In this document: in pieces, positions 34,335 through 35,870 of the stretch
Layout: every line of letters starts with the position of its first letter
How positions within the stretch are numbered: position 1 is the stretch's first letter
DNA from: Escherichia coli
GTDB taxonomy: Bacteria > Pseudomonadota > Gammaproteobacteria > Enterobacterales > Enterobacteriaceae
Reading direction: 5' to 3' (one strand)
NCBI RefSeq assembly: GCF_001677475.2
Contig: NZ_CP012498.1
DNA: 64,000 bases
Notes under the pieces: generated by a model
Told to the model about the DNA's origin: nothing
The model's input: the letters and a program-made list of their open reading frames with translations, nothing else
Databases searched by the model: none
Program-made: the position numbers and the translations under genes

Positions 34335-34765
34335 GCGATATTGCAGCATGATAGCTGCAATAAAATAGATTGCTGCTATCATGCTATACGCAAACGCCAG
34401 CACTTATAATGACATAGTTTCCAGACAGTGATCTACTGATGGTATAATATAACGCTCGACTCATGTTATACTATCTGCATGCTTGCTGCAATCTTGCAGT
34501 TATGTGGCTGCAATCCTGAATAAGTTCTCTTTTAGTATTGCAGCAAGATTGCATAAAGCTTGTAGCTTTCATTGTTGTGAACGTGACAGCAGTATTCGGC
34601 TGTCAACTCCTGTACACTTCTGAATGGCATGATTGAATCTTGCTGCTAGATTTATGATTGTTGCAATCTTGCTTCAAGCTGTTATCTTGTGCGGAAAGAG
34701 TTACTTCTCCTAACCTCAATCAGGTTTATATTTATGTTTGCTGCAAGATAGCAGCAAGAAAATGG
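34335..34765. promoter_or_regulatory. Array of centromere-like repeats (TGCTGCAATCTTGCA-type units in both orientations) upstream of the parA-like gene
   Basis: At least eight copies of CTTGCTGCAA / TTGCAGCAAG-type motifs read directly from the sequence. Confidence 0.55.
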
Positions 34766-34772
34766 GGGCTAA

Positions 34773-35405
34773 ATGGCCTGGATAGTTGGTTTTATTTCCC
34801 AGAAAGGTGGTGTGGGCAAAAGCACTAAAGCGAGAGCGTTAGCGCGTGAAGCATCCGCCTGTGGCATCAAAACAAAATTAGCTGACCTCGACCTGGAACA
34901 GGCAACGAGTGCTGAGTGGCATCGTCGACGTCTGTCAGCGGGTTTGTCTCCGGTTGCTTCAGTTGAGGTATTTTCAACAGCAAAGCAGGCGATAGAATCT
35001 GCCGGCGATTTTGACCTTCTCATTCTTGATGGCCCAGCTCGTGCAAGCAAAGGGACTTCAGAGATTGCTAAGGTAGCTGACCTTATCGTTCAGCCAACGG
35101 GGGCCTCCCTTGACGATCTTATCCCGGCCATTAAAGTTTTCAACGCGCTGGTAAAAGAAGGTGTACCACGTTCAAAACTGGTCTTCGCTTTAAGCCGGGT
35201 AGGTACCGAAGCGGAAGAGCTGGATGCTCGTGCATATATCAGTGAAGCGGGTTATGAAACTTTATCTGGATGCCTTTTTGAGAAGCCAGCATACAGAAAA
35301 GCGATGAATTCAGGACTCGCAGTGACAGAAACACGTTATAAAGGTTTAAACGAGAGAGCAGATGAACTTATTCAGGCACTCATCGATAAGATTGGAGAAG
35401 AGTAA
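34773..35405 (+). CDS. ParA-family partition ATPase (small, ParF-like)
   Basis: 210 aa; deviant Walker A SQKGGVGKST near the N-terminus. Confidence 0.75.
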   Translation: MAWIVGFISQKGGVGKSTKARALAREASACGIKTKLADLDLEQATSAEWHRRRLSAGLSPVASVEVFSTAKQAIESAGDFDLLILDGPARASKGTSEIAKVADLIVQPTGASLDDLIPAIKVFNALVKEGVPRSKLVFALSRVGTEAEELDARAYISEAGYETLSGCLFEKPAYRKAMNSGLAVTETRYKGLNERADELIQALIDKIGEE

Positions 35406-35767
35406 TGGCTGATGCATCAAAACTTAAAACTAAAAGGGCCCGTGGTGGGCTGGGTGTACCCCCAGGCCCCGACGAATTGGCTACCAGCCTGAATGCGCCT
35501 GAGATAGCACCGGCAGTCGCTGCAATACCGCAGGCGGACTTATCGCCTGTGAACCATGACCCTATGGTTACGCAAATAGTTACCGAGGCATATACCCGCC
35601 GCGATGGTCGTTCTGCCAGAAAAACAAACAGGACGCTGGCATTTGCGACACGTGTCACACCTGCTTTCGACCAGGAAATCCGGGATATCGCGGAGCGTGA
35701 GGGGTTGAAACTGGTGGAAGTTCTGGAAAAAGCAGTTGAGGCATATAAGGAAAAACAGGGGTATTAA
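35405..35767 (+). CDS. Putative partition DNA-binding partner (ribbon-helix-helix-like C-terminus)
   Basis: 120-aa ORF coupled to the parA-like gene (stop/start overlap); C-terminal region consistent with an RHH fold; assignment inferred from context. Confidence 0.45.
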   Translation: MADASKLKTKRARGGLGVPPGPDELATSLNAPEIAPAVAAIPQADLSPVNHDPMVTQIVTEAYTRRDGRSARKTNRTLAFATRVTPAFDQEIRDIAEREGLKLVEVLEKAVEAYKEKQGY

Positions 35768-35769
35768 TC

Positions 35770-35870
35770 CACAACGCGGCTATCTTGCTGCATTCTTTTT
35801 AATGCTTCAATCTGGCAGCAAGATTGAAGCTAGCTAAATGCTATATTGTTGCAAGATAAATTGTATGATA
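35770..35870. promoter_or_regulatory. Second block of the same centromere-like repeats downstream of the partition genes
   Basis: CTTGCTGCA, GCAGCAAGATTG and GTTGCAAGATA motifs read directly from the sequence. Confidence 0.45.

Follow-up and report, generated by a model that had tools for sequence, protein, structure and literature searches.

A putative type Ib plasmid partition cassette of Escherichia coli with arrays of one palindromic repeat on both sides of its operon

In a 64,000-nucleotide stretch of Escherichia coli DNA (contig NZ_CP012498.1 of assembly GCF_001677475.2; hereafter the window), a parA-like gene and a gene for a 120-amino-acid (120-aa) protein, here called the adaptor, stand between two blocks of a short palindromic repeat. 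The locus is likely a type Ib plasmid partition cassette, in which the adaptor would coat both flanking arrays as the centromere or centromeres. An earlier reading of this DNA, made from its letters without database searches (the sequence-only reading), had noted repeats on both sides of the gene pair and suggested that they could represent two clusters of binding sites. This suggestion is supported by our analysis, in that the same motif occurs in both blocks, travels with the gene pair over 16 related loci, and changes together with the adaptor in the most distant of these, from Thiothrix. The anatomy of type Ib systems has been defined as a ParA that is devoid of the regulatory N-terminal domain, a small adaptor, and adjoining arrays of short sites (PMC3235114, PMC3074162).

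The repeat unit consists of a 9-bp palindrome, TTGCWGCAA, and a 2-bp spacer. When one mismatch was allowed, the palindrome matched the window at 38 sites compared to 21.8 ± 4.8 in shuffled sequences, none of 100 of which gave 38 matches. Inside the two blocks lie 14 of the 38 (11 at 34341–34757 and 3 at 35785–35854), where a background of 0.38 per kb predicts 0.16 and 0.04, respectively (Poisson P = 5e-17 upstream and 1e-5 downstream). With up to two mismatches, 13 units were counted upstream versus 1.7 expected (P = 3e-8) and 5 downstream versus 0.4 expected (P = 6e-5), so that short-repeat arrays beside the operon, including its promoter region, are present as a type Ib feature. The exact palindrome occurs three times in the window, each time upstream of parA. 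From start to start, units are spaced mainly by 11 bp (8 pairs), and also by the multiples 22, 33, 44 and 55. A comparison of 7-mers common to the upstream and downstream blocks was likewise positive and only moderately discriminating against mononucleotide shuffles, and the site-based counts are the stronger evidence. That a short AT-rich palindrome has merely clustered by chance in these intergenic stretches is barely credible. Over the whole window the 8-mer TTGCWGCA occurs 12 times, a number reached by 7 of 100 shuffles and hence not significant, but locally the enrichment is about 70-fold at the P values given above, the units keep a strict 11-bp phase, and their positions are conserved across the 16 related loci.

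These counts confirm the presence of the motif on both sides of the parA-like pair. The limits that the sequence-only reading had set to the two blocks (34335–34765 and 35770–35870) also proved accurate, the downstream one stopping where a different motif starts at ~35866, and the strings that it had cited were located at 34482–34491 (CTTGCTGCAA), 34538–34547 (TTGCAGCAAG) and 34738–34747 (TTGCTGCAAG). Its observation that the motif is found in both orientations is true but trivial because the core is a palindrome.

The comparison set comprised 16 related plasmid loci, in which adaptor identity to the window ranges from 98% down to 37%, and repeats flank the operon on both sides in all 16. Among the 15 loci with a TWGCWGCWA-type motif, 11, including those of Pseudomonas and Xanthomonas, have a pair of units about 35 and 24 (or 34 and 23) nt before the parA start, and in all 15 a pair follows the adaptor stop, beginning 2–9 nt from it and lying within 2–20 nt. 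This downstream pair is present whatever gene follows, be it repA (Nitrosospira), parC (Pseudomonas, Enterobacter), a hypothetical gene (Xanthomonas) or parM (enteric bacteria). The motif itself varies by group, being TTGCWGCAA in the enterics and TAGCWGCTA in Nitrosospira, Pseudomonas and Xanthomonas. In Thiothrix (plasmid pTunz1, locus L015), whose ParA is 60% and whose adaptor is 37% identical to those of the window (tblastn), the motif is AGCTTTTA/TAAAAGCT, and it is altered upstream (about 1270–1377) and downstream (about 2322–2365) together. From this joint shift of the two flanks in the most distant relative, both blocks appear to belong to a binding protein that the operon itself encodes. 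No other finding argues as strongly that the operon's own product would read both blocks. Within the adaptor, the varying residues of the predicted beta-strand give RTLAFATRV in the enterics, RTVQFATRV in the second group and RTEAFGTRV in Thiothrix. In the last of these, then, the repeat and the putative DNA-reading strand both differ, as in a natural specificity switch.

The same comparison bears on a different origin of the repeats, as iterons of a RepFIB-type RepA or as a multimer-resolution site of a nearby recombinase. A gene for a RepFIB-type RepA, a Rep3-family initiator, is indeed found 1.6 kb upstream of the cassette (32202–33179, minus strand), and recombinase or integrase genes adjoin the cassette in L006, L008, L009, L010 and L015. 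We nevertheless regard this origin as very improbable, since the motif follows the parA/adaptor pair over unrelated replicons at fixed distances to the parA start and the adaptor stop, and co-varies with the adaptor, not with Rep or recombinase. The replicons of the related loci include RepFIB, RepE/IncFIA, IncI-gamma/K, an IncC cointegrate, an IncP-typed plasmid and a small mobilisable MOBQ plasmid, and the genes next to these loci vary as well (repA, parC, recombinase, parM). Moreover, a 94-aa open reading frame at 33723–34007, between the RepFIB-type repA and the par module, resembles a core fragment of an IS3-family transposase (IS, insertion sequence), so that replicon and par module are not contiguous in the window.

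Of the two proteins, the predicted ParA carries a deviant Walker A box (KGGVGKS, residues 11–17) and matches the Pfam families CbiA and MipZ; its best PDB match is ParF of plasmid TP228 (4dzz, E = 5e-7, covering residues 4–188), while its score against the NCBIfam model ParA_partition is 93 bits, under the cut-off of 180. The start of the adaptor gene overlaps the parA stop by one base (TAATG), through which its translation is predicted to be coupled to that of parA. At 120 aa, the adaptor is inside the range of 46–131 aa given for type Ib centromere-binding proteins (PMC3235114). Its alignment falls into three parts, namely an invariant N-terminus with a basic, K/R-rich motif (MADxSKLKxKRxR..LGxPPGPDE..LNAPEIAP), a linker variable in both length and sequence, and a conserved C-terminal domain (DGRSARKTNRTLAFATRVTPEFDxEIRDIAEREGLKLVEVLEKALEAYKEK), within which a beta-alpha-alpha, ribbon-helix-helix-like domain is predicted at residues about 74–118. 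In an AlphaFold2 monomer model built from the family alignment, residues 1–85 are unstructured and helices span residues 86–99 and 103–118, with a predicted local distance difference test score of about 85. When this model was searched with Foldseek, nearly all matches were ribbon-helix-helix proteins (CopG, Arc, StnY, MatP and ParG, 1p94), at E-values above 1. The ribbon-helix-helix fold class is thus a prediction of moderate confidence for the adaptor, which, with a disordered N-terminus of basic character and a ribbon-helix-helix-like domain at its C-terminal end, would be built like the centromere-binding proteins of type Ib systems. In every source and cluster name examined, the adaptor is annotated as 'hypothetical protein'.

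Table 1. Positions in the window of the partition genes, the repeat arrays and the adjoining features.
Feature	Position	Strand	Description
Sub-array A	34341..34389		Units at 34341 (TTGCAGCAT), 34352 (TAGCTGCAA) and 34370 (TTGCTGCTA); degenerate unit at 34381
Sub-array B	34483..34568		Eight in-phase 11-bp slots: 34483, 34494, 34505, 34516, 34527, 34538, 34549, 34560
Sub-array C	34640..34677		Units at 34640 (TTGCTGCTA), 34658 (TTGTTGCAA) and 34669 (TTGCTTCAA)
Operator-like pair D	34738..34757		TTGCTGCAA at 34738 and TAGCAGCAA at 34749, 11 bp apart
parA	34773..35405	+	210 aa, Walker-type partition ATPase (predicted), type Ib size
Adaptor gene	35405..35767	+	120 aa, putative ParB-like centromere-binding protein
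Downstream pair	35774..35793		Units 7 and 18 nt past the stop of the 120-aa gene
Downstream array	35802..35854		Five in-phase 11-bp slots: 35802, 35813, 35824, 35835, 35846
Relic of parM-parR (type II) control/centromere region	35866..35960		Boxes ACTCAANNTGAGT at 35870 and 35944; partial box at ~35909
IS3-family element end	35978..36160	-	TGAAGTGGTCAACAAAAACTGGCCACC...; stands in place of parM-parR

Upstream of parA the units are grouped into three sub-arrays and a pair (Table 1). Sub-array A forms a large 2+2 inverted repeat with 17-nt arms that are 94% complementary, and is kept in the relatives L014, L013, L005 and L006. In sub-array B, six of the eight slots hold recognisable units, those at 34483 and 34538 being exact copies of TTGCWGCAA. 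Sub-array C is overlapped by what may be a weak promoter (TTGCAA-16 nt-TATCTT), read by eye; a consensus promoter scan did not list this candidate. Pair D lies 35 and 24 nt 5' of the parA ATG, directly upstream of a GGGGG ribosome-binding site, and is invariant among five close relatives. Two further segments were observed on this side. Between sub-arrays A and B, a segment of ~90 bp (34390–34480) contains two perfect TATAAT hexamers (34405–34410 and 34443–34448) and is missing in the IncI-gamma/K relative L006; this segment may represent a promoter or inserted DNA. The module begins on its left with an 80-bp stretch (34255–34335, ATCTGCCGGAAC...GCTGCCTGATTCTAATAG) that is kept in L014, L013, L005 and L006, independently of the upstream neighbour, and that may be the true left boundary of a mobile par module or the remnant of a gene.

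On the downstream side, the first unit of the pair, at 35774, is degenerate, reading ACGCGGCTA in the window and ATGCAGCAA in relatives, and the second, at 35785, is TTGCTGCAT. The pair folds as a hairpin (-8.5 kcal/mol, z = -2.3), which is followed by a T-run, TTCTTTTT; its counterpart in enteric relatives is near-perfect (ATGCAGCAA-TC-TTGCTGCAT). Given the hairpin, the T-run and the near-perfect form in enteric relatives, the first downstream pair probably doubles as the terminator of the operon. An Rfam scan of the region gave no match at E-values up to 1. Beyond the pair, four of the five slots of the downstream array are occupied by recognisable units (ATGCTTCAA, TGGCAGCAA, TTGAAGCTA and TTGTTGCAA).

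Similarity to intact loci extends past the array and ends at about 35960. In enteric relatives that have not suffered loss to an IS, parM and parR follow in the same direction, 240–500 bp after the adaptor gene, and the spacer holds ParB-type units first and then a TATAAT-like box and three to four ACTCAANNTGAGT boxes up to the parM ATG. Such ParR-type boxes lie between array and parM ATG in L013, L006, L007, L009, L016 and L019, and also flank parM in plasmid pMAR2; in the 64-kb window, exact matches to ACTCAANNTGAGT are confined to the two positions in the relic (Table 1). Searches of the window by tblastn with ParM and ParR found nothing. By comparison with these intact loci, what is left in the window is the type Ib half of an earlier double partition locus in tandem, from which an IS3-family insertion has evidently removed parM-parR. 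A further candidate, that the downstream block is the ParR centromere of the lost parMR, was rejected, as the ParR-type boxes have a motif of their own and begin only at 35870.

IS junctions between the downstream array and parM were found in three loci: in the window (35960–35978), in L014 (about 3466–3500), which has the same IS type as the window at another position, and in L005 (about 2478–2565), where the element is ISSen4. The ParB-type array was spared in all three. These junctions suggest either a recurrent loss of the type II half or a hot spot of insertion.

The data on the downstream side are also those that bear on the only serious alternative, which overlaps in part with the cassette reading, that is, that the upstream arrays alone are centromere and operator and that the downstream block serves chiefly in regulation or termination. 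Under this alternative, the block would end parAB transcription by its hairpin and T-run and would ancestrally have let the adaptor control the parM-parR promoter, leaving the window with a leftover of that cross-regulation. Consistent with this, the first downstream pair is a hairpin followed by TTCTTTTT, and in L013, L006, L007, L008, L009, L016 and L019 the array stops a few nucleotides before the TATAAT-like box and the ParR boxes. ParB of plasmid pB171 is, furthermore, said to repress the promoters of both par1 and par2. By contrast, the pair is kept in L010, L011 and L012, which have neither parM-parR nor a T-run, and the three independent insertions (window, L014 and L005) took parM-parR while leaving the array intact. 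In addition, the 500-bp spacer between adaptor gene and parM in the Pantoea locus L018 (2364–2867) has at least 11 units versus 4 upstream of parA, and this larger downstream array looks like a centromere rather than an operator. We therefore consider it rather unlikely that the role of the downstream block is mainly regulatory. As an observation on the Pantoea locus itself, its main array is the downstream one.

Several points weigh against the assignment of the locus as a partition cassette whose adaptor coats both arrays. In Pseudomonas, Xanthomonas and Nitrosospira the downstream block is a single pair of units, as the regulatory alternative would have it, and a single pair is no less compatible with a regulatory or terminator element than with a second centromere. 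No Pfam, NCBIfam or PDB match to the adaptor was obtained in sequence and profile searches, and the evidence for its fold comes from models of moderate confidence, with monomer Foldseek E-values above 1. Because a consensus scan of the upstream region gave no convincing sigma-70 promoter, the operator role of the units near parA is read from their position alone. Finally, literature searches by plasmid type and by repeat sequence returned no paper or experiment on this par family.

Taken together, these data suggest how the cassette might work. The adaptor would dimerise via its C-terminal ribbon-helix-helix domain, one dimer occupying each TTGCWGCAA palindrome; on a TTGCAGCAA duplex, the predicted beta-strand of the dimer (R76-T-L-A-F-A-T-R83) would lie in the major groove over GCWGC. 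With sites 11 bp apart, adjacent dimers would share one face of the helix, a geometry that favours cooperative binding, by which the adaptor would coat the upstream arrays (34341–34757) and the downstream array (35774–35854). The resulting adaptor-DNA complexes would be the centromere or centromeres of the plasmid, from which the basic N-terminal tail of the bound adaptor would contact ParA-ATP on the nucleoid and stimulate its ATPase, with the effect that plasmid copies are positioned apart. The pair 24–35 nt before the parA start, probably with sub-array C, would be an operator through which the adaptor represses its own operon, and the first downstream pair would probably serve as terminator hairpin as well. 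Type Ib operons are as a rule repressed by their own small protein (PMC3235114). In the present case we infer binding, cooperativity, autoregulation, ATPase stimulation and the identity of the block or blocks with centromere activity from the sequence.

The sequence-only reading had described repeats on both sides of the genes as less common than a single upstream centromere. This was not upheld, as the layout is not unusual here, having been published for pB171 par2, pSM19035 and pESBL (PMC7602700, PMC4270457). The par2 locus of pB171 is written parC1-parA-parB-parC2 (PMC4270457), pESBL has octamer arrays upstream and downstream that are bound by ParB in vitro (PMC7602700), and on the Myxococcus plasmid pMF1 ParB-binding iterons lie upstream and downstream of the par operon (PMC3235114). 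The pESBL study also states that pB171 and pSM19035 share the flanking-array layout of that plasmid (PMC7602700).

We compared pB171 par2 with the window through its copy on the enteropathogenic E. coli plasmid pMAR2 (NC_011603, L004, 39585–40900). Like the window, it combines a small Walker ParA and a small adaptor with cognate arrays on both sides of parAB, and like the family of the window it stands beside a parM-parR (type II) locus with ACTCAANNTGAGT-type ParR boxes (PMC4270457). However, its ParA is only 30% identical to that of the window (E = 5e-14), its adaptor, of 91 rather than 120 aa, has no similarity to that of the window (BLASTP E = 3.2; hhalign probability 0.2%), and the repeats of the pMAR2 copy are short ACTTCA/ATCACA-like units unrelated to the 11-bp-phased TTGCWGCAA. 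The two loci of pB171, par1 and par2, are moreover divergent around a common parC1, whereas those of the window family are in tandem, with the type II half missing from the window. Orthology to pB171 par2 was rejected on the grounds of ParA identity, unrelated adaptors and different repeats, architecture being all that they have in common.

Other systems resemble the window in one respect or another. pESBL (IncI1, E. coli O104:H4) likewise has a type Ib ParA and an adaptor of roughly 100 aa that is annotated as hypothetical, with no recognisable DNA-binding motif (PMC7602700). Its adaptor has been shown by electrophoretic mobility shift assay to form one complex per repeat (PMC7602700), whereas the system of the window is known from sequence alone, and its repeat is the octamer GATAACAA (PMC7602700) rather than TTGCWGCAA. 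Identity with the pESBL par system was rejected, given the different repeat and probably a different protein, the adaptors being set apart by description only. ParF of TP228 is the closest solved relative of the window ParA, and its partner ParG forms a ribbon-helix-helix dimer whose N-terminal tail is flexible (PMC3074162), as would hold for the window adaptor; ParG differs, however, in its size of 76 aa and has no detectable sequence similarity to that adaptor. At the TP228 centromere parH, degenerate tetramer boxes and AT-rich spacers make up one upstream site (PMC3130281), in contrast to the two flanking arrays of 9-bp palindromes in the window. The omega protein of pSM19035, also of the ribbon-helix-helix fold, binds short-repeat arrays at several locations, including ones on both sides of the par genes, and is both centromere binder and repressor (PMC7602700, PMC3074150), but delta-omega is a Firmicute system with heptad repeats and an omega of 71 aa, which would not be expected to be related in sequence to the window system. 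Par1 of R27 (IncHI1), considered because IncFIA(HI1) replicons neighbour the cassette of the window, was rejected since its 417- and 335-aa proteins are of type Ia size.

In two relatives, from Pseudomonas (L011, 2414–2728) and Enterobacter (L017, 2414–2728), the adaptor gene is followed by a gene for a 'ParC family partition-associated protein' (NCBIfam NF041544, 122 bits). Their order parA-parB-parC is that reported for plasmid pRA2 of Pseudomonas alcaligenes; PMC3235114 describes three open reading frames in pRA2 and cites autoregulation and parS binding by its ParB. The window locus differs from pRA2 in that it is without a parC gene.

Searches of plasmid collections revealed a wide distribution. 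By megablast, 364 plasmid records of PLSDB contain the 1.7-kb module; they come from Klebsiella, Escherichia, Salmonella and others and are mostly conjugative plasmids. Among 5426 complete E. coli genomes, 142 have the module, in each case on a plasmid and never on a chromosome. With the adaptor as tblastn query, about 450 plasmid records in PLSDB were matched, from Klebsiella, E. coli, Salmonella, Enterobacter and others, extending to Xanthomonas, Pseudomonas, Nitrosospira and Thiothrix. In PLSDB and the complete E. coli genomes, the closest plasmid match to the par module is 97.1% identical; the closest plasmids are IncFIA/FIB plasmids of 215–242 kb from cattle, beef and lettuce isolates, with a type VI secretion ImpA-family gene nearby. 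An identical adaptor is recorded on E. coli contigs of up to 214 kb.

The locus thus appears to be a widespread, though previously uncharacterised, representative of the type Ib partition class, for which the flanking-array layout is already known, and the general picture of type Ib partition is unchanged by it. A broader reading, which we put forward only tentatively as a possibility, is that the family was ancestrally a tandem double partition locus, in the order parA, adaptor gene, array and parM-parR, in which the downstream array lay directly against the parM promoter and the ParR boxes and was at once a second centromere, the parAB terminator and a cross-regulator of the type II system; such a tandem locus would be the counterpart of the divergent double locus of pB171. 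If this were true, the IS insertions at the joint (in the window, L014 and L005) would have uncoupled the two systems repeatedly, and the downstream array would have been kept for the sake of the type Ib half, which needs it. The cassette is common and is carried by many conjugative plasmids, yet its adaptor is still listed as 'hypothetical' and its centromere is unannotated. A defined unit and both arrays provide a ready design for binding and stability experiments. Since the variants TTGCWGCAA, TAGCWGCTA and AGCTTTTA track the putative DNA-reading strand, groups of partition incompatibility may be predictable from sequence, and the same variants would form a small natural series on how the specificity of ribbon-helix-helix proteins shifts.

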